Source: a virus
Reading direction: 5' to 3' (one strand)
Length of the DNA stretch: 36,452 nt
IMG/VR virus record: IMGVR_UViG_3300045988_087108
Span: 1-36,452 of that record
Shown here: positions 1 through 36,452 of the stretch, piece by piece
Numbering within the stretch: position 1 is the stretch's first letter
Layout: each line of letters starts with the position of its first letter
Program-made: the position numbers and the translations under genes
Notes under the pieces: generated by a model
Database searches by the model: none
The model's input: only the letters and a program-made list of their open reading frames with translations
What the model was told of the DNA's origin: nothing

Positions 1-55
1 CCCCTGACGGTAGGATATTGAACAAGTGCTGTACGTGCGGAGTGGTTCAAGACAT
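1..55. repeat. Terminal redundancy, identical to 36398-36452. Indicates circular closure or an assembler k-mer overlap.
   Basis: Direct comparison: cccctgacggtaggatattgaacaagtgctgtacgtgcggagtggttcaagacat occurs at both window ends. A reading frame runs through the junction. Confidence 0.95.
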
Positions 56-425
56 AACAAAGATGGACGCTGGACACTACATCTCACGTGGAAAGTATGC
101 TACAAGGTGGAGCGAGGATAATGTCCACCCGCAGTGCCTGACAGAAGACAGTAAACTTAGAATGTTCAATGGCACTAATAAAAGCATAGCAGACATTAAA
201 ATCGGAGATAAACTATGGGCTTTTGACAAAGGCACTTTTGAGCCTGAAGTTGCGGTTGTTGAAAATGTCGATAGCTTTATGCCTAGTGAGCTTTACGAGG
301 TTGAAATGGAGAACGGCGACAAGTTCTATGCTACAGGCGACCACAGAGTGGTTGCGAATGGTAAGTGGGAGAACGTAAGTCATATGTTGCAAAGTCAGTC
401 TACGTATGATATTTTTGAACTATGA
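3..425 (+). CDS. ninG: NinG-like recombination endonuclease N-extein (up to nt 134) fused to a split-intein N-fragment (135-422). The true start is ATG 36304, across the circular junction.
   Basis: Extein motifs CCTCG...DAGHYISRG...NVHPQ match the NinG pattern. From Cys at 135 the sequence is CLTEDSKL (intein block A), then FYATGDHRVV (block B, TxxH). Stop at 423-425. Confidence 0.75.
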   Translation, partial: PDGRILNKCCTCGVVQDITKMDAGHYISRGKYATRWSEDNVHPQCLTEDSKLRMFNGTNKSIADIKIGDKLWAFDKGTFEPEVAVVENVDSFMPSELYEVEMENGDKFYATGDHRVVANGKWENVSHMLQSQSTYDIFEL

Positions 426-1013
426 AAAAAGCACTATTTGACAAGACGGAACATACTAAATGGTACATAGCTGAGGACGGCACTGTGTGGAGTTCTAGCA
501 CTTATCATAAAAACGGCAAGTTAAGAAAAAGGTGTGTCCAAAGAAACAAAAGAGGATACTATTATGCAAGAACTACCAACGGTAACTACCAGGTCCATAG
601 ACTTGTAGCTAGTGCTTTTATACCAAATCCAGAAAACAAGCCAGAGGTAAATCATAAAGACTTCAATAAACAAAACAACTCAATCGAAAACCTTGAATGG
701 GTAAGTCATAAAGAAAATATGAGACATGCTATTGATAACGGGAGGATTGCTCTACTGCCAAAAGACAGCGGAACAAATCTAAAATACACCAAAGAACAAT
801 GTCTAACGGTAATATCACTAGTTGAAAGTGGGCTTACATACAAAAAAGCTGGAGAACAAGTTGGAATGCCGTATTCAACAGTAGCTCACTTAATCACAGG
901 GAGGAGGAGAAGTTATGCGAGTAAAATCAATCAAAAAAGTTGAGCCTAGGAGAGTTTACGCAGTGCAAACGTCTACAGGCACATTTATAGCAGATGGATT
1001 AGCTCATCACAAT
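135..1013 (+). mobile_element. Split (fractured) intein with a free-standing HNH homing endonuclease ORF between IntN and IntC.
   Basis: IntN is 135-422 (96 aa) and IntC is 915-1013 (33 aa, ending AHHN before Cys+1). The host frame between them has several stops (423 tga, 468 tag). Removing 135-1013 restores the NinG motif HPQ-CKRCN. Confidence 0.75.
422..943 (+). CDS. HNH homing endonuclease (HNH_3 type with a C-terminal HTH), free-standing between the intein halves.
   Basis: Motif VHRLVASAFIPNPENKPEVNHKDFNKQNNSIENLEWVSHKEN, and a C-terminal HTH-like segment LTYKKAGEQVGMPYSTVAHLI. The ATG overlaps the upstream stop (ATGA at 422-425). The frame differs from the host gene. Confidence 0.85.
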   Translation: MKKALFDKTEHTKWYIAEDGTVWSSSTYHKNGKLRKRCVQRNKRGYYYARTTNGNYQVHRLVASAFIPNPENKPEVNHKDFNKQNNSIENLEWVSHKENMRHAIDNGRIALLPKDSGTNLKYTKEQCLTVISLVESGLTYKKAGEQVGMPYSTVAHLITGRRRSYASKINQKS

Positions 1014-1229
1014 TGCAAACGCTGTAATATTTTTCTCAAGGGAAACTACACCTCATATGCTTTGTTCATGATTAAAACCTACGGTTACTCAAAACTACAA
1101 GAGCTTGACCGACGCTCCAAATCGACGGAGAAAATCTACACATACGAATTGATAGAGAAGATTGAATACTACAAAGCAAAAGTAAAAGGGGTTGAGAGGG
1201 TGCTTCGTGAAACGAAAACCAATGACTAA
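915..1229 (+). CDS. ninG: Split-intein C-fragment (915-1013) fused to the NinG-like C-extein (1014-1226).
   Basis: MRVKSIKKVEPRRVYAVQTSTGTFIADGLAHHN|CKRCNIFLKGNYTSY gives intein blocks F/G ending HN plus Cys+1, followed by the NinG CxxCN...GN..Y motif. It has its own strong SD, GGGAGGAGGAG, at 899-909. Same frame as 3-425. Confidence 0.75.
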   Translation: MRVKSIKKVEPRRVYAVQTSTGTFIADGLAHHNCKRCNIFLKGNYTSYALFMIKTYGYSKLQELDRRSKSTEKIYTYELIEKIEYYKAKVKGVERVLRETKTND

Positions 1230-6030: not shown

Positions 6031-8157
6031 ATGAGAATGCGAAGAGTGATAAAGAACTTAATAGGGGGGACAGCGTTCCAAGACGTACCTCACATTGACC
6101 TGGACAAATACTTGACTGGAGACTTCACCAGTGGAAGCTCACGTATGAACAACTACTCATCAAAACGCTCACAATTGAGAGCTAACATAGGCTGGGTGTT
6201 TGCTGCCAACAGTGCGATATCAGAAGAGTGTGCCTCAGTGGAGTTGAAACTATACAAAAAGAGAAAGAATGGCGACCGAGAGGAAATCTTTGACCACGAA
6301 ATCCTAGACTTACTGAAGAGACCGAACGGCTGGCTCAGAGGCTCACAGTTCTGGAGCTTGTACTATCAATACATGAACCTCACAGGAGAAGCCTACATTC
6401 TGAAAATGCGGAACGGGGAAATCATGGATGTTGCCTCTGACCAGTTACCACATGCCTTACACGTTGTACCGTCTCACCTAGCAAACTTGAAACTGGGGGA
6501 CAGCCGAGAAGACAGTGTGGTGAACTTCCTAGGACACGATATCCCTCTTGATTGCTTTATCCGAGATATTAACCCAGACCCAGACAATCCGTATCAAGGT
6601 AGAAGTATCATCAAAGCTTCAGCCATGGCGTTAGACACGGACTACCGAATGCGAGAGTGGAACAGGGGATTATTCGCCAACGCAGCACGACCATCAGCTG
6701 TACTAGAAGTACCAGACGTAATGACCGATGAAGTCTACCAAAGATTAAGCAAGCAAATGGACGAGGCTCATGCGGGCAGTGATAACGCCTTTAAGCAGAT
6801 TATCCTGGAGGGTGGAGCTAAGTTAGTGCCGTACTCTCTTAACCAGCAAGACCTAGACTTCCTAGAATCACGGAAGTTCTCCAAAGACGAGATATTCGCT
6901 ATGTTCAGAACCTCACCGTCTATCGTAGGGATGACCGAAGATGTGAACCGAGCCAACGCTGAAGCTCAAGACTACACCATGGCAAAGCGCGTGGTGTTGC
7001 CACGAGTGAGAGGACTGAAAGAGTTATTGAACGTTGAGCTGGTGGAGAAATACGACCCAGCACTAGAGATTGACTTTGTGAACCCAATCCCAGAAGACAA
7101 AGCCCAGGAGTTAGCAGAGGACGCTCAAGGAGTGAACAAGTGGTTGACGATTGATGAAGTGAGAGAGAAGCGAGGACTGCCACCGTTAGAGAATGGAGCA
7201 GGAGCGGTTCTGTATCGACCTTTGAACGAAGTGCCGATTGACATGTTGACAGACATAGTAAAACCAGAGACGGAAGCCCCACAAGAGAGCGAAACCCCAA
7301 CAGAGGAGGGTGAGAAGAGCCAAAAAAAAGATGAGGACGAGCTGGAAGCAATAGGCGAGGCGAAATCCGTCTTGTACACCCGACAGGCGAGACAGTACGA
7401 GAACCTCATTCTAAGAGCCTCTAAGGCGATGTTTAACGCACAGAGGGAAGATGTGTTGAAATGGTTGCAGAACGCCCTCAAAACGTATCCTACAGCCTCA
7501 CAGAAGCAAAAAAAGGAAATGCTGGACGACATGGCAGACTGGGAGAAGTACCAATCAGAGTTTGCAGCGACAATGAAACGGATATACGCCATGATAATCG
7601 AGGAGACGGGGAAAGACGCACTGGACGCACTCAATCTGAACGACGATATCCTATTCGACCCAATCAGTCTCAGGATACAGAGGTTCTTGGAGACCGAGCC
7701 GCTGAAAGCCTCCACCACCATCACCGAGGAGACCAAGAAGCAGATACGGGCAGCATTGTCTCAGGGAATGATGAACGGGGACAGTCTCCATGAATTAACT
7801 GAGAAAGTAAATCAGATATTCGGATACGCAGCACAAGACCGAGCCTACAAGATAGCAGAGAGCGAGACCACGAGAAGCCAGGGCTTTGCAGATGTGGAAG
7901 CGTGGAAGCAGTCGGGACAAGTAACCGCCAAACGCTGGTACACATCAAAAGACGAACGAGTGTGCAAGTTTTGCGGGACTATGCACAACAGGACAGTCTC
8001 AATTGACGACAATTTCTATAACAAGGGGGACAGTATGGTAGTGCCGAGAGAGAACAAGAGCGACGCCGTATTGAACTTTAACTATGAGGATATCGCCCAC
8101 CAACCGCTACATGTGAGGTGTCGCTGTGTGCTACTACCCGTGATGAAAGATTTGTAG
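6031..8157 (+). CDS. Portal protein (HK97-family portal, about residues 1-410) fused to a MuF / SPP1 gp7-like head morphogenesis domain (about residues 445-708).
   Basis: Portal-like NPDPDNPYQGRSIIKASAMALDTDYRMREWNRGLFANAARPSAVLEV. Acidic linker ETEAPQESETPTEEGEKSQKKDEDE. MuF-like ESETTRSQGFADVEAWKQSG...WYTSKDERVCKFCGTMHN...CRC. Confidence 0.8.
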   Translation: MRMRRVIKNLIGGTAFQDVPHIDLDKYLTGDFTSGSSRMNNYSSKRSQLRANIGWVFAANSAISEECASVELKLYKKRKNGDREEIFDHEILDLLKRPNGWLRGSQFWSLYYQYMNLTGEAYILKMRNGEIMDVASDQLPHALHVVPSHLANLKLGDSREDSVVNFLGHDIPLDCFIRDINPDPDNPYQGRSIIKASAMALDTDYRMREWNRGLFANAARPSAVLEVPDVMTDEVYQRLSKQMDEAHAGSDNAFKQIILEGGAKLVPYSLNQQDLDFLESRKFSKDEIFAMFRTSPSIVGMTEDVNRANAEAQDYTMAKRVVLPRVRGLKELLNVELVEKYDPALEIDFVNPIPEDKAQELAEDAQGVNKWLTIDEVREKRGLPPLENGAGAVLYRPLNEVPIDMLTDIVKPETEAPQESETPTEEGEKSQKKDEDELEAIGEAKSVLYTRQARQYENLILRASKAMFNAQREDVLKWLQNALKTYPTASQKQKKEMLDDMADWEKYQSEFAATMKRIYAMIIEETGKDALDALNLNDDILFDPISLRIQRFLETEPLKASTTITEETKKQIRAALSQGMMNGDSLHELTEKVNQIFGYAAQDRAYKIAESETTRSQGFADVEAWKQSGQVTAKRWYTSKDERVCKFCGTMHNRTVSIDDNFYNKGDSMVVPRENKSDAVLNFNYEDIAHQPLHVRCRCVLLPVMKDL

Positions 8158-11931: not shown

Positions 11932-12375
11932 ATGCAGTTCATAACCAAAGATATCAAGAACTCACTCATACGAGCCTTGAAAACCCTCAAACCAACAGAG
12001 AACGGCACAGAGATACAAGAAGTAGCAGGTTCGAGCTTCCAAGTGTTCGAGGCTTATCCCTCAATCCGTGTCCTACCAGATGATGTAGACAATGAGACCG
12101 AGACTAACCGTAGCGACGAGAGAATGGCAAAGTTCACCCTCTTAACCCACATAGAGATGACAGAAACTCCAGAGAGCGAGGAGGAGGCGTACAACACTAT
12201 GTATGACCTACAAGACCTCATTATGGACAAACTCCAAGAGTATGACTGGGAGAACCTGGTGAACGTGCTACAGACACAGGTTACGTATGGCGGTTACGAG
12301 TTACTAGAGATGAACAACGGCATTAACCTGATATTCAGAATGACCGTGACTGTTAAATATTCCCGCAAAGTGTAG
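11932..12375 (+). CDS. Tail terminator / tail completion protein (positional call).
   Basis: ORF with a GGAG RBS in the expected slot before the major tail protein. Confidence 0.45.
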   Translation: MQFITKDIKNSLIRALKTLKPTENGTEIQEVAGSSFQVFEAYPSIRVLPDDVDNETETNRSDERMAKFTLLTHIEMTETPESEEEAYNTMYDLQDLIMDKLQEYDWENLVNVLQTQVTYGGYELLEMNNGINLIFRMTVTVKYSRKV

Positions 12376-12409
12376 TAAGATAAGAATAAAGAAAAGGAAA
12401 GAGAAAAAC

Positions 12410-12559
12410 ATGGACGAAAAGAAAAAGAAAGATATCCCACAAGAAGTAATCACACCTAAACGGAAATACTTTATGCCAGAGAGTGGCAAAGTAGTGGAAG
12501 CAGAGAGCTTAGAACAAGCAATTCAAGAAGATAAAAACGAACAAAAGGAGAACAAGTAA
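12410..12559 (+). CDS. Small hypothetical protein (49 aa), absent from the ORF track.
   Basis: ATG after an AAAGGAAAGAGAAAAAC leader. The stop overlaps the next start (TAATG). Confidence 0.4.
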   Translation: MDEKKKKDIPQEVITPKRKYFMPESGKVVEAESLEQAIQEDKNEQKENK

Positions 12560-13542
12560 TGGCAGAGTTTATTGGTAGGCGAGTATCAGTCGGTGTAGGA
12601 ACTGAAACCACCCGAGGCACAGCGGTAGCACCAAGCTATTGGTTTAGGCATTTATCATTGAGCTTTGGACGTAAAACCACGGCTATTCAAAACGAAAGTG
12701 CGATGGGACGCGTTGAGAAGATTAACGACTCAGCAATCGTGTCTCAGTGGGCAGAGGGGCAGTTAGAGGGTAAGGTAACCGACATCGGTGTTGGTTATTT
12801 ATTAGCTAACATCTTTGGCACGGTGAGTTCAAAGAAGAAAGCGGACGACGCTACCGTGTATGAACACTCATTTACTGTCAATCAGCTACAAACGCCGCCG
12901 ACTATGACCATTGCACGGAAAGACCCTAACTCTGACCGTCGCCACGCCCTTGGTACTTTGAGCCAGATGGAACTGTCCGTGGAAGCTGGCGACTGGGTGA
13001 AAGTGAACTGCGATATCTTGGCAAAAATGGGTACAGACACCTCAAACACCGTAGCATTTATCGAGGAAAACGAGTTCACCAGCCGTAACCTGTCTGTAAA
13101 GATGGCAAACGATGAGGCAGGACTGGCAACCGCAGCTCCAGTGGCATGTAAGAGCTTCAAAATGACGCTGAATCGCAACGCAACTACATACCTAGCATGC
13201 AACGATTCTATCGACATCACAGACATCCATACAGGCGCATACGAGCTTACAGGTGAAATGGTGCTGATTTACACCAACCAGGATTGGGAGAATAAGTACT
13301 ACAACAACACCGCTCAAGCTATGGAAGTGAACATCGAGAACAAGCAGGTGCAGATTGGTACGAAATCGCACCCAGGCTTGAAGATTAAAGCACCAAAGGT
13401 TCGTGTAAGTGAATGGAGTACGTCAAACGACCTAGACGCAGTCATTGAACAGACGTTGTCGTTCAGCATTGAATTGGACGCAACCAAGGGCAAAGCAATC
13501 GAGGCAATCTTGACCAACACTAAAGCAGACTACAACGCTTAA
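12559..13542 (+). CDS. Major tail (tube) protein.
   Basis: Position immediately upstream of the G/GT chaperone pair and the tape measure gene. No sheath gene is present, which implies a siphovirus tail. Confidence 0.6.
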   Translation: MAEFIGRRVSVGVGTETTRGTAVAPSYWFRHLSLSFGRKTTAIQNESAMGRVEKINDSAIVSQWAEGQLEGKVTDIGVGYLLANIFGTVSSKKKADDATVYEHSFTVNQLQTPPTMTIARKDPNSDRRHALGTLSQMELSVEAGDWVKVNCDILAKMGTDTSNTVAFIEENEFTSRNLSVKMANDEAGLATAAPVACKSFKMTLNRNATTYLACNDSIDITDIHTGAYELTGEMVLIYTNQDWENKYYNNTAQAMEVNIENKQVQIGTKSHPGLKIKAPKVRVSEWSTSNDLDAVIEQTLSFSIELDATKGKAIEAILTNTKADYNA

Positions 13543-13557
13543 AGAATAAGGAGGAAT

Positions 13558-13953
13558 ATGGGACGTTTAGCGCTTAACAAGAAAGTAGACATCGGCAAAC
13601 TAATTGACGGCTGGGACGGAGCTTACGTCATCGTCTCGCCAATGCTGACCAAAGACATGGCAGAGTTCGCCAACTCAAACATTGACGAGGCAGACAAAGC
13701 TCAACTGTCCGCTCAAACGCTAGAGTGGGCTAAGAAGAAGTTTGTGCGAGGCAAGGTCTATATTGAGACCGAAACTGGCAAAGAGTTGGTGGACATGCAA
13801 GTGGAAGACATCGATGAACTACCATTCGTAGTAGTTACCGAGATTTTCTCTGTCTTAGTAGGAAAAGACTTTGACCCAAAAGCTTCAGCGACGGCTCAGA
13901 GCGGCGCACTAGAGCCAACGAGCGTCGCAGCCGTTACAGGAGCGCTATCCTAA
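13558..13953 (+). CDS. Tail assembly chaperone (G-like).
   Basis: 131-aa acidic protein between the major tail protein and the tape measure. A -1 frame extension is open downstream. Confidence 0.7.
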   Translation: MGRLALNKKVDIGKLIDGWDGAYVIVSPMLTKDMAEFANSNIDEADKAQLSAQTLEWAKKKFVRGKVYIETETGKELVDMQVEDIDELPFVVVTEIFSVLVGKDFDPKASATAQSGALEPTSVAAVTGALS

Positions 13954-14144
13954 GAGGCGTTCAAATCCCTCAAGAGTTTGCACAGGAAATCCAGGGCGTA
14001 ACCTATCGAGAGCGCCTTGGATTGTCGTATCAGGAGTATTTGGAAGAGCCATATGAAGAAGTGGAGCGGGCTTTATATATCTGGAAGCTGCAAGATGAGC
14101 GTGATAAACTAGAACAAAAGAGAGCTGAACAGAAACAGCGATAA
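13558..14144 (+). CDS. Tail assembly chaperone frameshift product (GT-like), made by -1 slippage near 13875-13881.
   Basis: The -1 frame is open from the heptamer CCCAAAA through to TAA 14142-14144. It encodes ...GVQIPQEFAQEIQGVTYRERLGLSYQEYLEEPYEEVERALYIWKLQDERDKLEQKRAEQKQR and ends just before the tape measure start. Confidence 0.55.
13875..13881 (+). promoter_or_regulatory. Putative -1 programmed frameshift slippery heptamer C CCA AAA.
   Basis: Fits the X XXY YYZ pattern in the G reading frame (gaC CCA AAA gct). Confidence 0.45.
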
Positions 14145-14167
14145 AAGAGAACAAAAAGAGAACAAAC

Positions 14168-16477
14168 ATGGCAAGTAACAACAGCGTTAAAATCATCATC
14201 TCAGCACACGACAGTGCTTCAGAAGTCTTTGCCAAGTTGGCGGCTGCCTCTAAATCAGCTACTAACGAGGTGGAGGCGAGTTTTAAGCGTCAACAAGCCG
14301 CGGCTGGCAATGCTCATAAGTCTTTCCGTGATTTTCTGACAAACACTCAATCGGGACTGTCGAGAATGGCAACAGGACTAGACGGGGCAGCGTCAAAGGT
14401 TGGTTCATTCTTAAAGGGTATAGCAGGTGTGGCGGTTACGGGTTCAGCTGGGTTCTTAGCGATGGGCAAGGCAGCCTTTGAGCAAGTAAGGAATGTGGAG
14501 AACGCCTCATATGCACTGAAAGCCTATGAAAAAGACGGGAACGCCGTCAATAAAGTCTTACAGGATTTGGTGAAATACGCGAAAAGCGACACTGGTGTCT
14601 TGTTCAATCGTTCGGACTTATTCGCGGCTGCTTCTACCTTAAAGATGTACGGTCAGGAAACAAGCACGTTAGTCGATAAGGTGAAAATCCTGTCCAAGGG
14701 CGTATCTTTGGGCAAAACGACGTTTCAGGAATTATCGTCAATTCTTGGGCGCGTTGCTGCGACTGGAAATCTCGACGCGGTTACTTTTGACATGCTTGTC
14801 GAGAGAGGTATCGGTCTTGATAAATCACTTCGTAGCACGAAAATCAGCAGTGAAGAGTTGTTCAAAGCCTTAGACAAAGCCTTGCCAGACAGTCTCTTGG
14901 AGGGACGGGCTAACACCATCGACGGCGCTTTAATCCGTGTGCAGTCTGCTTTTCGTAACCTAGGTATGCAGATTTTGGGCGTGGACGCAAACACAAATAA
15001 GTTTATTGAGGGCGGAGCTGGCGACAGATTGATGAACTTAATCCGCGACTTGACCACAGAGATGAGCAAGCCCGAGATGAAACAGGCGATGAAAGACCTG
15101 GGCGACCAGTTGGCAAAACTAGCAGAGGAAGTCATACCGAAAATACTTGACGCTCTTAAATGGTTAAGCGAGAACTTTGACAAGGTCGTGTTAGCCGCTA
15201 AAATCGCCGCTGGAGCGTTTGTAGCGTTAAAGGCGGCAGCATTGGGTCTCAAGACTATAAACACCGTTACAGGCGTTATAAAGGGCTTACACGGGGCATT
15301 TTTGAGTTGCCAGACCGCGGCTGATGGATTTAAGTTAGGCATGGAGGGTATTACAGGCGCTTCTCAGGGGGTTACTTCGGCGAAAATCGGCACTGCGTTC
15401 GGCGTGATAGCTGGGGCAGTCAAGAAAGCAACAATCCAGGTCGTGAAGTTGGGAATTGCATTCGCGACTAACCCTATAGGTGCGACAATCATCGCCGTTA
15501 CAGCGCTAGTTGCTGGGTTTATTTGGTTGTGGAATAACGTTGAGGGGTTCAGAAACTTCTTCATAGGCGTTTGGGACGGAATTAAAAATGCTGTGGACGG
15601 CTTCGTAGAAGGGTTTAAGAATGTATTCAACGGGGTTGTGAATTGGATTAAAGAATGGGGACTGACAGTGCTAGCCGTGCTGTTCTTCCCGTTCTCTCTC
15701 TTGCTTGGGTTCATCATTTCGAAATGGGACGAGATATCCGCATTCTTCAGTGGTGTAGCAACGTGGTTCGCGGACTTCTTTAGAGGGGTGTGGGACACTA
15801 TTGTTGCTATCTTTACCCCTGTGGTGCAGTTCTTCTCAGACATGTTTAGCCAGGCTTGGACTGCCGTTTGCGATGTTTGGAACGCGGCAGCTGGGTTCTT
15901 TGGGGACGTTTGGAATAAGGTGGTCGGTATATTCCAGGTTGTCGGAACTTGGTTCGGAGACAGGTTCAGAGAAGCTTGGGAGGGCATAAAGCGTATTTTT
16001 GCGCCTGTCGGAGAGTTCTTCGGAAACATGTGGAATACGATTGTCTCTAAGTTCAAAGACATCGGTAAGATGGTGGGAGACGCTATCTCAGGTGCGGTAA
16101 AGGGTGCTATCAACTGGCTGATTGATAAGGCTGAGGGTTCTATCAACGGCTTCATCGGTTTAATCAACGGTGCAGCTGGGATTATCAACCACATTCCAGG
16201 AGTTCATATCCCGAGAGTTCCCGAAGTTCACTTTAAGCGATTGGCAAAAGGTACAGAACACGCTGAGGGCGGTCGATATCTGGTCGGTGAAAACGGACCT
16301 GAGATGGTTACTCTGCCGAGAGGTGCTAAGGTTATGCCAGCCGAGCGCACAGCGCGCCATCTGGAGAATAATCAGAAGAGAGGCGACATCAATATCAACA
16401 TAGACGCAAAGATATATAAAGACACCGACGCATATCAGTTAGCGTCAAGGATTGGATATCTAGTAAGCCAAGCATAG
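14168..16477 (+). CDS. Tape measure protein.
   Basis: 769 aa. Alpha-helical N-terminal half, hydrophobic segments, and periodic W/F repeats (FFRGVWDTIV..FSQAWTAV..FFGDVWNKVV..FREAWEGI..FFGNMWNTIV). Synteny. Confidence 0.85.
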   Translation: MASNNSVKIIISAHDSASEVFAKLAAASKSATNEVEASFKRQQAAAGNAHKSFRDFLTNTQSGLSRMATGLDGAASKVGSFLKGIAGVAVTGSAGFLAMGKAAFEQVRNVENASYALKAYEKDGNAVNKVLQDLVKYAKSDTGVLFNRSDLFAAASTLKMYGQETSTLVDKVKILSKGVSLGKTTFQELSSILGRVAATGNLDAVTFDMLVERGIGLDKSLRSTKISSEELFKALDKALPDSLLEGRANTIDGALIRVQSAFRNLGMQILGVDANTNKFIEGGAGDRLMNLIRDLTTEMSKPEMKQAMKDLGDQLAKLAEEVIPKILDALKWLSENFDKVVLAAKIAAGAFVALKAAALGLKTINTVTGVIKGLHGAFLSCQTAADGFKLGMEGITGASQGVTSAKIGTAFGVIAGAVKKATIQVVKLGIAFATNPIGATIIAVTALVAGFIWLWNNVEGFRNFFIGVWDGIKNAVDGFVEGFKNVFNGVVNWIKEWGLTVLAVLFFPFSLLLGFIISKWDEISAFFSGVATWFADFFRGVWDTIVAIFTPVVQFFSDMFSQAWTAVCDVWNAAAGFFGDVWNKVVGIFQVVGTWFGDRFREAWEGIKRIFAPVGEFFGNMWNTIVSKFKDIGKMVGDAISGAVKGAINWLIDKAEGSINGFIGLINGAAGIINHIPGVHIPRVPEVHFKRLAKGTEHAEGGRYLVGENGPEMVTLPRGAKVMPAERTARHLENNQKRGDININIDAKIYKDTDAYQLASRIGYLVSQA

Positions 16478-33197: not shown

Positions 33198-35069
33198 ATG
33201 GCAAACTTCTCTGGGTTAAATACCCTCTTAAACGAAATTGACAAAACAGTTTCAGACAAAATCGATGATAAAATCAGCAACGAAATACCAGAGCTGAAAA
33301 AGCTGGTAAAAAACGCTGAGAAATCTATCAAAGAAAATCTGCCGATGAAAGTCGAGTACGACGGCAAGCTACATGACGTTAAAGGTCTACGCCACAAAGC
33401 GTTGGATAATCTTATTGTGATGGCTTCGCAGAAAATCCCCGTGCTGTTAGTCGGAATGGCAGGGTGCTTTGCGAAAGGCACAGAAGTGCTTACAGCAAAC
33501 GGATATAAGCCAATTGAGGAAATCACAGAGGGCGAAGTCGTGGCAAGCTTTGATAATGAGCAGATTGTTTATAATAAGGTCGCTCAGACAGCTAGGATTG
33601 ACGACCAGCCAAAACCAATGATACAATTTAGATATGGGAATGAAACAATCAGAGCTACCTATGACCACCCTTTCTTCGACGGAGAAAGATATTATCCGCT
33701 CTATCAGCTTGCCTGGAGAGATATGGAGACAAGCCAAAGGATTCAGCTCAAACTATTATGCGAGCAATATGGGCAGACTTTTGACTACAAAACATCACGG
33801 GGGGTATCATATCGCGATTCTCAAACCTGGGAAAGACAAGGACGGGCATTTACGAACAGCGATGAACGGAAAAACTGTCAAGGTACACAGAGTGGTGGCT
33901 CAGACGTGGATACCCAACCCAGAAAACAAGCCAGAGGTGAATCACAAGAACTCAAACCCTGCCGACAACAGAATAACGAACCTGGAGTGGGTTACACACC
34001 AGGAGAACGTAAAACACGGTTACGAGAATGGAAGAATAAAAGAGTCGTTAGCCAAGGCAGTTGCAAAAACACGAAAGTACGACAGAGACGAGCTGCGAGC
34101 GATACAGAGATGGTGGGACACTCATACTGCTTCAGTGGGGAAAAAGGATTGGAAAGCAAGACACCAATTGTTAGAGCAATTGCAGAAGATGTATCCGCAC
34201 ATAGCGAAAACGACGCTCAAAAATATACGACTAAAGCGAGACATTTACAAGACGTTGTAGTTCTTGAGGCTGAGCCATACTATGCCTTAAGCATTGAGAA
34301 TGTCCATACCTATATTGTCAGTAGAGAAAACCTGCCTGTTCATAATACAGGAAAGACGCACGCTGCTGCTCAAGTCGCTGAGGCACTGGGATTAAGCCAC
34401 TACACAATGTCTGTAGGCGCTCAAACATCTAAATCAGACATAATCGGCTACATGCACGCCTCTGGCGGTTACGTGCCGACGCTCTTCCGAAAAGCATATG
34501 AGGAGGGCGGAGTATTCTTGATGGACGAAATCGACGCTGGCAATGCTAACGTCCTTATCCAGGTCAATGCGGCGCTTTCTAACGGCTTCTGTGCCTTTCC
34601 AGACAAGATGGTGGAACAACACAAAGACTTTGTCTTTATCGCCTCTGCTAACACGTTTGGAAACGGTGCTAACCGTATGTACGTTGGTCGTAACCAGCTT
34701 GACGCTGCTACCCTTGACCGCTTTGCCGTCTTAGTCTGGGACATTGACGAGAAGCTGGAAGACAAAATGACAGAAGCCTACGGAGACACTGGCAAGAACT
34801 GGCTCAAGGTGGTGCGAGAGCTGAGAAAGACTATTGAGAATGACGGTATCCGAGCTTTGGTAACGCCACGTGCTACTATTAAAGGTTGCTCTTTACTAAA
34901 TATCGGGCTTGACTTTGAGACTGTCCTAAACGCTGTGATTGTGGAAAACTTGCCGAGCGACAAGAAGTCTCGCTACCGCGACATGGCTAAGAAAAAATGG
35001 GACGAGACTTCCGAAACTGAGAAAGCACACGAGACAGCCGAGGCGGAAGAAGCTGAGATAATCTGGTAG
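33198..35069 (+). CDS. AAA_5 (MoxR/CobS-like) ATPase precursor with an intein in the Walker A loop.
   Basis: Exteins join as PVLLVGMAG-TGKTHAAAQVAEALGL (Walker A GxxGTGKT). Walker B GGVFLMDEID. Downstream DAATLDRF. Confidence 0.85.
   Translation: MANFSGLNTLLNEIDKTVSDKIDDKISNEIPELKKLVKNAEKSIKENLPMKVEYDGKLHDVKGLRHKALDNLIVMASQKIPVLLVGMAGCFAKGTEVLTANGYKPIEEITEGEVVASFDNEQIVYNKVAQTARIDDQPKPMIQFRYGNETIRATYDHPFFDGERYYPLYQLAWRDMETSQRIQLKLLCEQYGQTFDYKTSRGVSYRDSQTWERQGRAFTNSDERKNCQGTQSGGSDVDTQPRKQARGESQELKPCRQQNNEPGVGYTPGERKTRLREWKNKRVVSQGSCKNTKVRQRRAASDTEMVGHSYCFSGEKGLESKTPIVRAIAEDVSAHSENDAQKYTTKARHLQDVVVLEAEPYYALSIENVHTYIVSRENLPVHNTGKTHAAAQVAEALGLSHYTMSVGAQTSKSDIIGYMHASGGYVPTLFRKAYEEGGVFLMDEIDAGNANVLIQVNAALSNGFCAFPDKMVEQHKDFVFIASANTFGNGANRMYVGRNQLDAATLDRFAVLVWDIDEKLEDKMTEAYGDTGKNWLKVVRELRKTIENDGIRALVTPRATIKGCSLLNIGLDFETVLNAVIVENLPSDKKSRYRDMAKKKWDETSETEKAHETAEAEEAEIIW
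33465..34346 (+). mobile_element. 294-aa contiguous intein (Cys1 ... His-Asn, Thr+1). Its central linker is overprinted by an out-of-frame HNH endonuclease ORF.
   Basis: Block A CFAKGTEVLTANG. Block B IRATYDHPFF. Blocks F/G DVVVLEAEPYYALSIENVHTYIVSRENLPVHN|T. The roughly 190 codons between them are polar and low-complexity, and have no stop in the host frame. Confidence 0.8.
33634..34260 (+). CDS. HNH homing endonuclease (NUMOD4 + HNH_3) encoded in an alternative frame inside the intein. The start codon is uncertain.
   Basis: EIWRQAKGFSSNYYASNMGRLL (NUMOD4-like). VHRVVAQTWIPNPENKPEVNHKNSNPADNRITNLEWVTHQEN is paralogous to 422-943. Its stop at 34258-34260 coincides with the start of the intein C-terminal blocks. 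Confidence 0.75.
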   Translation: MGMKQSELPMTTLSSTEKDIIRSISLPGEIWRQAKGFSSNYYASNMGRLLTTKHHGGYHIAILKPGKDKDGHLRTAMNGKTVKVHRVVAQTWIPNPENKPEVNHKNSNPADNRITNLEWVTHQENVKHGYENGRIKESLAKAVAKTRKYDRDELRAIQRWWDTHTASVGKKDWKARHQLLEQLQKMYPHIAKTTLKNIRLKRDIYKTL

Positions 35070-36029: not shown

Positions 36030-36314
36030 ATGAAAAGACTGAGAGCTGGAGACCCAAATCGACAAGAAGTATGGGCAGCAAACGGTGCGCTGTTCTCTAT
36101 CGTGGACTTGGGAATACCACTACACTTTGATGAAATGAAGCGGCATATTACGACAGAAGAAGCTAAGAGGATTAAAAAGCTGTTTGCAAATGTAGCCAAA
36201 AGGAGAAAATCAAACATTGAGCTGGCAAGAGTAGACGGTGGCGTGGAAATCCTGGGCAGATTTAGAACTTTCAGACAGGCAAGGAGGTTTATCAAGGAGA
36301 ACTATGAAGACTAA
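36030..36314 (+). CDS. Hypothetical basic protein.
   Basis: ORF with a GGGGAGTGAG RBS. Confidence 0.55.
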   Translation: MKRLRAGDPNRQEVWAANGALFSIVDLGIPLHFDEMKRHITTEEAKRIKKLFANVAKRRKSNIELARVDGGVEILGRFRTFRQARRFIKENYED

Positions 36315-36452
36315 CAAGAAAATGACTAGAGGAGAGGTCGTCAAACGACTAGATTCAATCTTCTCTAAATGGGTCAGGCTCAGGGGTGCGAAAATCACCC
36401 CTGACGGTAGGATATTGAACAAGTGCTGTACGTGCGGAGTGGTTCAAGACAT
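36304..36452 (+). CDS. ninG: 5' end of the NinG-like gene. It continues through the circular junction into 3-425.
   Basis: AAGGAGAA RBS, then ATG 36304. Translates to MKTNKKMTRGEVVKRLDSIFSKWVRLRGAKITPDGRILNKCCTCGVVQD, in phase with the ORF at the window start. Confidence 0.75.
   Translation, partial: MKTNKKMTRGEVVKRLDSIFSKWVRLRGAKITPDGRILNKCCTCGVVQD
36398..36452. repeat. Second copy of the 55-nt terminal redundancy (identical to 1-55).
   Basis: Exact identity by direct comparison. Confidence 0.95.

Follow-up and report, generated by a model that had tools for sequence, protein, structure and literature searches.

A fractured NinG/Rap gene in a circular phage contig: a probable trans-splicing split intein interrupted by a free-standing HNH endonuclease gene

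The stretch of DNA analysed here, referred to below as the window, is the whole 36,452 nucleotides (nt) of the virus record IMGVR_UViG_3300045988_087108 in IMG/VR, and its interrupted gene for the recombination nuclease NinG/Rap forms the subject of this report. This gene is very probably a fractured gene, in which a class-1 intein has been split by a free-standing I-HmuI-like HNH gene, with the two intein halves acting in trans-splicing and the HNH gene making the whole a homing cassette. The split falls where endonucleases are canonically inserted in inteins. Bases 1-55 of the window repeat bases 36398-36452 exactly; this overlap was left by the assembler, shows the contig to be circular, with 36397 base pairs (bp), and is not a biological terminal repeat. 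Because the window is circular, a gene can legitimately cross the 36452/1 junction. The locus consists of three open reading frames (ORFs), which encode the two parts of the host protein (the N-extein and C-extein), the two parts of the intein (IntN and IntC) and the HNH protein, with lengths given in amino acids (aa).

36304 across the junction to 425, + strand: ORF1, a 76-aa NinG N-extein followed by a 96-aa IntN
36304..36452, + strand: start of ORF1 and 5' part of the N-extein, with the ATG at 36304 and AAGGAG upstream
1..134, + strand: remainder of the N-extein, ending ...EDNVHPQ (CAG at 132-134)
135..425, + strand: IntN, 96 aa, with Cys1 (TGC, 135-137), the start CLTEDSKL, block B ATGDH, the end YDIFEL and the stop TGA at 423-425
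422-943, + strand: ORF2, the free-standing HNH gene, 173 aa, in another frame, with HNH_3 and a C-terminal helix-turn-helix (HTH)
899..909, + strand: Shine-Dalgarno sequence GGGAGGAGGAG for ORF3, within the 3' end of the HNH gene and 5 nt before the ATG at 915
915-1229, + strand: ORF3, a 33-aa IntC and a 71-aa C-extein, in the same frame as ORF1
915..1013, + strand: IntC, 33 aa, MRVKSIKKVEPRRVYAVQTSTGTFIADGLAHHN, ending LAHHN and overlapping the 3' end of the HNH gene by 29 nt
1014..1229, + strand: NinG C-extein, 71 aa, CKRCN...GN..Y, with Cys+1 (TGC, 1014-1016) and the stop TAA at 1227-1229

The ATG of ORF2 overlaps the stop of IntN as ATGA, and the HNH gene has no Shine-Dalgarno sequence of its own. 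Between 426 and 914 the host frame contains 12 stop codons, which excludes a single sequencing error and means that the intein is truly split. When the exteins are joined, their 76 and 71 residues make a NinG of 147 aa. The insertion lies in the QCxxCN motif of NinG, directly before the first Cys (Q|CxxCN), and does so in all ten fractured loci compared. The net charge is -9 for IntN and +4 for IntC, with the same polarity in four other loci (-6 to -10 for IntN, +1 to +5 for IntC). In natural split inteins such a pattern of acidic IntN and basic IntC drives assembly, and the reference fragment sizes are about 100 and 35-40 aa (PMC11923092). An in-frame ATG at 1223, directly before the stop of ORF3, is a possible start for a next, overlapping gene.

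Much of this had been anticipated by an earlier reading of the same DNA, the original prediction. Its placing of the start of a NinG-like gene at 36304, with passage across the circular junction, agrees with the ATG found there and with the exact 55-nt overlap, and the break that it saw within the QC..CN motif is located precisely by the uninterrupted relatives described below. By its sequence ORF1 does consist of an N-extein and a 96-aa IntN with its stop at 423, and ORF3 does combine a strong Shine-Dalgarno sequence, a 33-aa IntC ending AHHN, Cys+1 and the frame of ORF1. The HNH ORF between them, in another frame and attached through ATGA, belongs to the HNH_3, I-HmuI-like type. That the stops preclude a single sequencing error is upheld by their number and by independent assemblies, the likeness in size to natural split inteins is joined by the opposite charges, and the resemblance to fractured genes, with an HNH endonuclease and a recombination nuclease as target, is confirmed by the layout, the HNH_3 domain and the NinG profile. 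The spliced NinG, put at about 117 aa, has 147 aa instead.

Membership of the NinG family is seen in both outer ORFs, as ORF1 covers positions 71-134 and ORF3 positions 128-192 of the Pfam profile NinG (PF05766). The joined exteins match positions 71-192 with 75.1 bits (cutoff 25.4) and also match PHROG 5034, the NinG/Rap junction-specific endonuclease, with an E value of 2.3e-28; the spliced NinG had no match when its sequence was searched against the PDB. IntN matches the Pfam families Hint and Intein_splicing, and the search with Hint profiles that the original prediction had proposed gives an E value of 3.2e-8 for IntN fused to IntC. The intein bears the sequence marks of class 1, namely Cys1, a block B TxxH, a terminal HN followed by Cys+1, the HINT match and colinear exteins at a conserved site. 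Cys1, TxxH, the terminal HN (...LAHHN|C) and Cys+1 are conserved in 10 out of 10 fractured loci, and the Thr and His of TxxH (T143 and H146 in the numbering of the relative P0001) are kept in at least 90% of alignment A2 and are invariant in alignment A3. The marks of a split intein are likewise present: separate ORFs with their own starts and stops, lengths of 96 and 33 aa, and opposite charges. For its part, ORF2 matches Pfam HNH_3 with 45.3 bits (cutoff 24.8), has weak HTH matches over residues 130-163, and matches PHROG 59. Its sole solved relative is I-HmuI (1U3E), the homing endonuclease of phage SPO1, which aligns over residues 30-163 with an E value of 8.7e-10, and the HNH motif residues are conserved.

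The structure model is the AlphaFold model of the contiguous relative P0001, a 279-aa precursor, which takes the place of the split intein of the window. All 50 matches listed by Foldseek for this model against the PDB are inteins or HINT domains, including the split inteins gp41-1 (6qaz; target-normalised TM-score 0.73), NrdJ-1 (8ubs) and Npu DnaE (4kl5), whose HINT fold is matched at 13-21% identity over the Foldseek alignments. In the model, the intein part of the contiguous relative is thereby shown to adopt the HINT fold. The NinG intein resembles these three in its fragment sizes, its split at the endonuclease position, its charges, Cys1 and terminal Asn. It differs from them in its extein and in having Cys as the +1 residue.

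A search with the virtual precursor, in which the halves are joined, returned P0001, a contiguous NinG with a mini-intein (88% identity), together with P0002, a 175-aa N-fragment at 89% identity from a cluster of 65 member sequences, and eight more N-fragments at 46-55% identity, all with the end YDILE[LMI]. From the contigs of these proteins and a scan of IMG/VR, three allelic states of NinG were found among close phage contigs, most of them of about 36-38 kilobases.

Fractured alleles: the window, L003, L009 and L010
Contiguous mini-intein alleles, with the HNH gene deleted: L002 and L011
Empty (uninterrupted) alleles: L012-L015

In the empty alleles NinG has 147 aa and reads ...EDNVHPQCKRCNIFLKGNY..., with the junction exactly at HPQ|CKRCN. 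The empty-site sequence is CACCCGCAGTGCAAACGCTGTAAT, and the L012-type junction is centred on CACCCGCAG|TGCAAACGCTGTAAT. The exteins of the window are colinear with this NinG and nearly identical to it, and the uninterrupted protein equals the predicted splice product. This answers the question, posed by the original prediction, of whether 3-134 and 1014-1226 are the two halves of one NinG domain, to which their complementary parts of the family profile also speak. Sporadic presence and absence at one site among close relatives is what is expected of an HNH homing endonuclease. Among the close relatives, the ratio of non-synonymous to synonymous substitution (dN/dS, Nei-Gojobori) is 0.02 for the N-extein, 0.13 for IntN, 0.15 for the HNH gene, 0.02 for IntC and 0.05 for the C-extein, and such low values in all five segments mean that all five are maintained by purifying selection.

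Any suggestion that the arrangement is unique has to be given up, since the same three-ORF layout recurs in at least nine other contigs, namely L003, L009 and L010 and the six distant contigs L004, L006, L007, L025, L027 and L028. In all nine the HNH gene sits between the NinG-IntN and IntC-NinG ORFs. IntN has 96 aa in nine of the ten loci and 98 aa in L010, and the length of IntC is 33 aa throughout. In the six distant loci, too, the start of the HNH gene and the stop of IntN overlap, and most of the loci other than the window have an AGGAG-like motif ahead of the ATG of IntC. The overlap between the HNH 3' end and IntC is 4-11 nt in the six distant loci against 29-35 nt in the lineage of the window. 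In most distant cassettes this overlap between HNH stop and IntC start is the 4-nt ATGA (L004 4992-4995; L007 5001-5004). In the lineage of the window the IntC start reads ATGC (window 915-943), so that the HNH ORF continues 29-35 nt into the IntC ORF and is extended by about nine residues.

When the window is compared with L004, L006 and L007, the exteins are 29-37% identical, IntN 59-66%, the HNH protein 53-56% and IntC 76-91%; for the distant loci overall the figures are 26-46% for the exteins (all pairs but one), 54-67% for IntN, 53-65% for the HNH protein and 73-91% for IntC. Between the window and L003 the synonymous divergence (dS) is 0.94 in the N-extein and 0.36-0.48 in the cassette, although these are small numbers. 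The lower dS of the cassette and its patchy presence support lateral spread of the whole IntN-HNH-IntC unit, and the pattern suggests that the cassette moves as one unit.

The cassette family is large and appears undescribed. Searching with ORF2 gave about 75 clusters of HNH_3 proteins of 158-175 aa at 49-92% identity, and all six distant HNH homologues whose contigs were examined sit between NinG halves. When 50%-identity representatives were searched exhaustively, the best 150 included about 38 N-fragment-like and about 12 C-fragment-like clusters, the latter beginning exactly at the IntC start. Another contiguous mini-intein occupies the same NinG site in P0164 (34% identity). In the searchable literature no description was found of a large family of such HNH proteins and N- and C-fragments, nor any report of a NinG/Rap intein or of a split intein fractured by an HNH gene, although this does not show that none exists. 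A second NinG insertion site, three residues downstream (QCxx|CN), is used in other phage contigs, where it holds a full-length LAGLIDADG intein (precursors of 443-456 aa) or degraded mini versions (321 and 367 aa); examples are L001 2899-4230 (MT840030.1) and the proteins P0149, P0184, P0155 and P0193.

A likely course of events at the fractured locus can be proposed. Co-transcription of the three ORFs is probable, as they overlap one another and a consensus scan of the + strand within 1-1229 revealed no promoter-like or terminator-like site among them. ORF1 would be translated from its own Shine-Dalgarno sequence, the HNH protein would be made at a low level, probably by termination-reinitiation at the ATGA overlap, and translation of ORF3 would begin from the strong Shine-Dalgarno sequence that lies within the 3' end of the HNH gene. 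The lack of a Shine-Dalgarno sequence at the HNH start and the strong one before ORF3 suggest that little endonuclease is made, through coupled translation, and that both intein halves are produced efficiently. RNA structure at the IntN/HNH and HNH/IntC junctions did not exceed that of shuffled controls (z-scores +0.46 to -0.60). Programmed frameshifting at an A6G run (TGAAAAAAG) was considered and rejected, as the host frame reaches the run only after the IntN stop, and L004, L006 and L007 lack it.

IntN (96 aa, acidic) and IntC (33 aa, basic) would then associate, fold into a HINT domain and undergo trans-splicing, giving the 147-aa NinG with its Cys cluster and His-Me finger made whole again. 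The likeliest role of the HNH protein is to cut or nick those NinG alleles of co-infecting relatives that lack the intein; repair would then place a copy of the entire IntN-HNH-IntC cassette in the allele that was cut, in a process of homing.

Several considerations weigh against this scheme. The chemistry of splicing, the coupled translation and what the endonuclease cuts are all inferred, and the arguments from Shine-Dalgarno sequences and coupling rest on general bacterial rules. The higher conservation of the cassette could partly be explained by stronger constraint and not by mobility, and the HNH protein could recognise the mini-intein rather than the empty allele, or be inactive. The AlphaFold model of P0001 is also of low confidence overall, with a mean predicted local distance difference test score (pLDDT) of 55.6; its exteins are poorly modelled and its intein part reaches a moderate level of about 60-75.

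Doubt about the endonuclease may be taken further, to the point where the split intein is real and the HNH gene is not, or is no longer, its homing endonuclease, being inactive, directed at some other target or recruited elsewhere. Some phage HNH proteins do have non-homing roles, and the mini-intein alleles L002 and L011 persist with no HNH gene. This explanation is nevertheless unlikely given the dN/dS of the HNH gene and its conserved motif residues, the placing of this HNH subfamily between fractured NinG halves in all nine further contigs, and a cassette dS against L003 that falls below that of the N-extein, as expected for recent lateral spread.

It is somewhat less likely again that the intein halves serve only as dimerisation domains, with the two parts of NinG held together and no peptide bond formed between them. 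A precedent is the nrdA gene of phage Aeh1, which is split by the HNH gene mobE with no intein and functions without splicing through the non-covalent assembly of its halves (Gibb & Edgell 2007; Friedrich et al. 2007, as described in PMC2677866, PMC3045599). The two systems share a free-standing HNH gene between the halves of a phage gene, and the co-transcription of the three genes, which is probable here. In NinG, unlike Aeh1, the break falls inside an intein, so that the protein can be re-ligated. Moreover, the members examined all keep Cys1, the Thr and His of block B, the penultimate His, the final Asn and Cys+1 without variation, which is unexpected if binding alone were selected, and the break lies within the Cys cluster and His-Me finger, where an insertion of 129 aa would probably be disruptive.

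A dead gene is very improbable. Phages can lose accessory recombination genes, and genes of the NinG type are non-essential in lambda, so the fragments might be decaying remnants of a NinG, or of its intein, inactivated by HNH invasion. Against this, the exteins have a dN/dS of 0.02-0.05 at a dS of 0.4-1.0, purifying selection is strong in all segments, and the catalytic and splicing residues and the lengths of 96 and 33 aa are conserved where the exteins are only about 30% identical. Finally, although the window is the product of an assembly, with a 55-nt terminal overlap of the kind that assemblers leave, and in-frame HNH domains are known in inteins (bioRxiv 10.1101/2025.01.02.630785), the chance that a frameshift error in sequencing or assembly broke one contiguous intein with such a domain is negligible, being opposed by the 12 stops across 426-914 and by the 65 member sequences of the N-fragment cluster P0002 alone, and effectively refuted by the same layout and overlaps in nine independent assemblies from different samples.

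The contiguous alleles bear on the direction of change. In L002 and L011 about 476 nt of the HNH gene are gone. Both keep TTATGAAAAAGCACC, in which the start codon and opening codons of the HNH gene (its first 13-14 nt) can be read with a single A missing, and GTTAT[A/G] right before the IntC coding sequence. One upstream T is missing, which puts the TGA stop out of frame and gives ...YDILSYEKAPV[I/M]RVKS... in the product. The contiguous mini-intein is best read as a derivative of the fractured form, a split intein presumably re-fused after loss of the endonuclease gene, because an HNH remnant lies in its linker and because distant cassettes conserve both the N-terminus of the HNH protein, M-K/R-(K)-A-L/I-F-D, and the YDILE[LMI] at which IntN ends before its stop. 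The reverse order, in which an ancestral mini-intein of the L002/L011 kind gave rise to the fractured form through later invasion by the HNH gene, is less likely: the linker keeps ATGAAAAAGCAC, which matches the conserved HNH N-terminus, and it is frame-shifted relative to the conserved IntN end ...YDILEL and its stop. Read as a derivative, the mini-intein would be a natural re-fusion, or 'healing', a step not drawn in the gene-breaking model of 2009, where loss of the endonuclease gene leaves the halves split and re-fusion into a mini-intein is not included (PMC2677866). In the mini-intein allele L011, IntN agrees almost completely with the window (135-422) in its 5' part and resembles L002 in its 3' part, a pattern that suggests recombination between fractured and mini-intein alleles circulating in one population.

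The window carries a second intein, in a gene for an AAA ATPase, with a paralogous HNH gene placed within it.

33198-35069: AAA ATPase gene with the second intein in its P-loop (Walker A)
33465-34346: second intein, 294 aa, VGMAG|CFAKG...PVHN|TGKTH
33634-34260, + strand: nested ORF with HNH_3 and NUMOD4, in the +1 frame, 44% identical to ORF2

This intein has a contiguous ORF, in whose central part no in-frame endonuclease domain occurs. The orthologue of the ATPase in L002 has 329 aa and no intein. The host frame over the nested HNH ORF has no stop in 208 codons, a result matched by none of 5000 synonymous shuffles (mean 10.3 stops), which indicates selected dual coding. No similarity between the splicing domains of the two inteins of the window was found by BLASTP. 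The two inteins assort independently, as L015 combines the second one with an uninterrupted NinG. Inteins with the endonuclease in a separate frame have been described by Gosselin, Arsenault & Gogarten 2025 (bioRxiv 10.1101/2025.01.02.630785), with a contiguous intein ORF and an endonuclease VII-like enzyme. The NinG locus is similar in having an out-of-frame endonuclease of the free-standing type at the endonuclease position, and the second intein is exactly of this kind, but the NinG intein differs in being split by its host-frame stops and in having an HNH enzyme. On balance, we lean slightly towards the view that this phage lineage preserves, as living alleles, steps in the joining and separation of endonuclease and intein, and that one HNH family gave both outcomes of invasion in one genome, a split NinG intein and a contiguous, dual-coding second intein.

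The nearest known arrangement is that of the fractured genes first described in 2009 by Dassa et al. from fragmentary ocean reads (PMC2677866). As in those loci, a free-standing endonuclease gene lies on the same strand between the halves of a split intein, the split is at the endonuclease-insertion site, and the endonuclease 3' end overlaps the IntC ORF, by 29 nt here and by 6-69 bp there (PMC2677866). The differences are several. The endonucleases of 2009 were GIY-YIG or Vsr-like, with HNH only predicted as one that 'could fracture genes' (PMC2677866), whereas the present one is of the HNH_3, I-HmuI-like type. The hosts of 2009 were gp41, NrdA, NrdJ, IMPDH, DnaE, DNA ligase, terminase and an unknown protein (PMC2677866), and NinG/Rap is outside these eight enzyme types. 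Hairpins were found upstream of the endonuclease genes of 2009 (PMC2677866), whereas here there is no 5' untranslated region or hairpin before the endonuclease gene, whose start overlaps the IntN stop. Finally, complete genomes and all three allelic states are available in the present case.

Fractured genes have been proposed as the missing link between contiguous inteins, endonuclease-carrying inteins and split inteins. To these the NinG locus adds an HNH endonuclease, predicted in 2009 and then unobserved, and, as a new host enzyme, a recombination nuclease whose metal-binding motif holds the break. It also adds complete circular genomes in which empty, fractured and apparently re-fused alleles co-circulate. 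Such natural intermediates make the evolutionary model testable, with respect to the endonuclease target, the movement of the cassette as a unit, and the trans- and cis-splicing versions. As a compact natural split intein (96 + 33 aa, predicted) with a natural cis counterpart, it could be useful for protein engineering.

As to its source, the original prediction spoke of an isolated phage genome, for which the searches give no support. No DNA match to the window exists among 50,697 GenBank phage records, the portal protein (window 6031-8157) is at most 25% identical to those of the isolated phages listed, and the relatives found are metagenomic contigs throughout. In a protein-level search of GenBank phages the intein part was matched by one record only, an unannotated faecal contig with a different NinG intein, and in the seven remaining records the N-extein was matched and nothing else. 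No prophage copy was found with the N-fragment profile in 185,579 species-representative genomes. The nearest portal relatives in species-representative genomes (L029, L030) are 28-29% identical and come from metagenome-assembled genomes of the candidate phyla radiation (CPR; Candidatus Saccharibacteria and Nomurabacteria), an identity too weak to name a host and only a weak hint. Downstream of NinG the window has a Vut_1-family gene (1878-2561), a putative vitamin uptake transporter, where the relative L003 has acetyltransferase and PAPS-reductase/DUF3440 genes instead (12240-14883), a comparison that points to a variable accessory region in this position.

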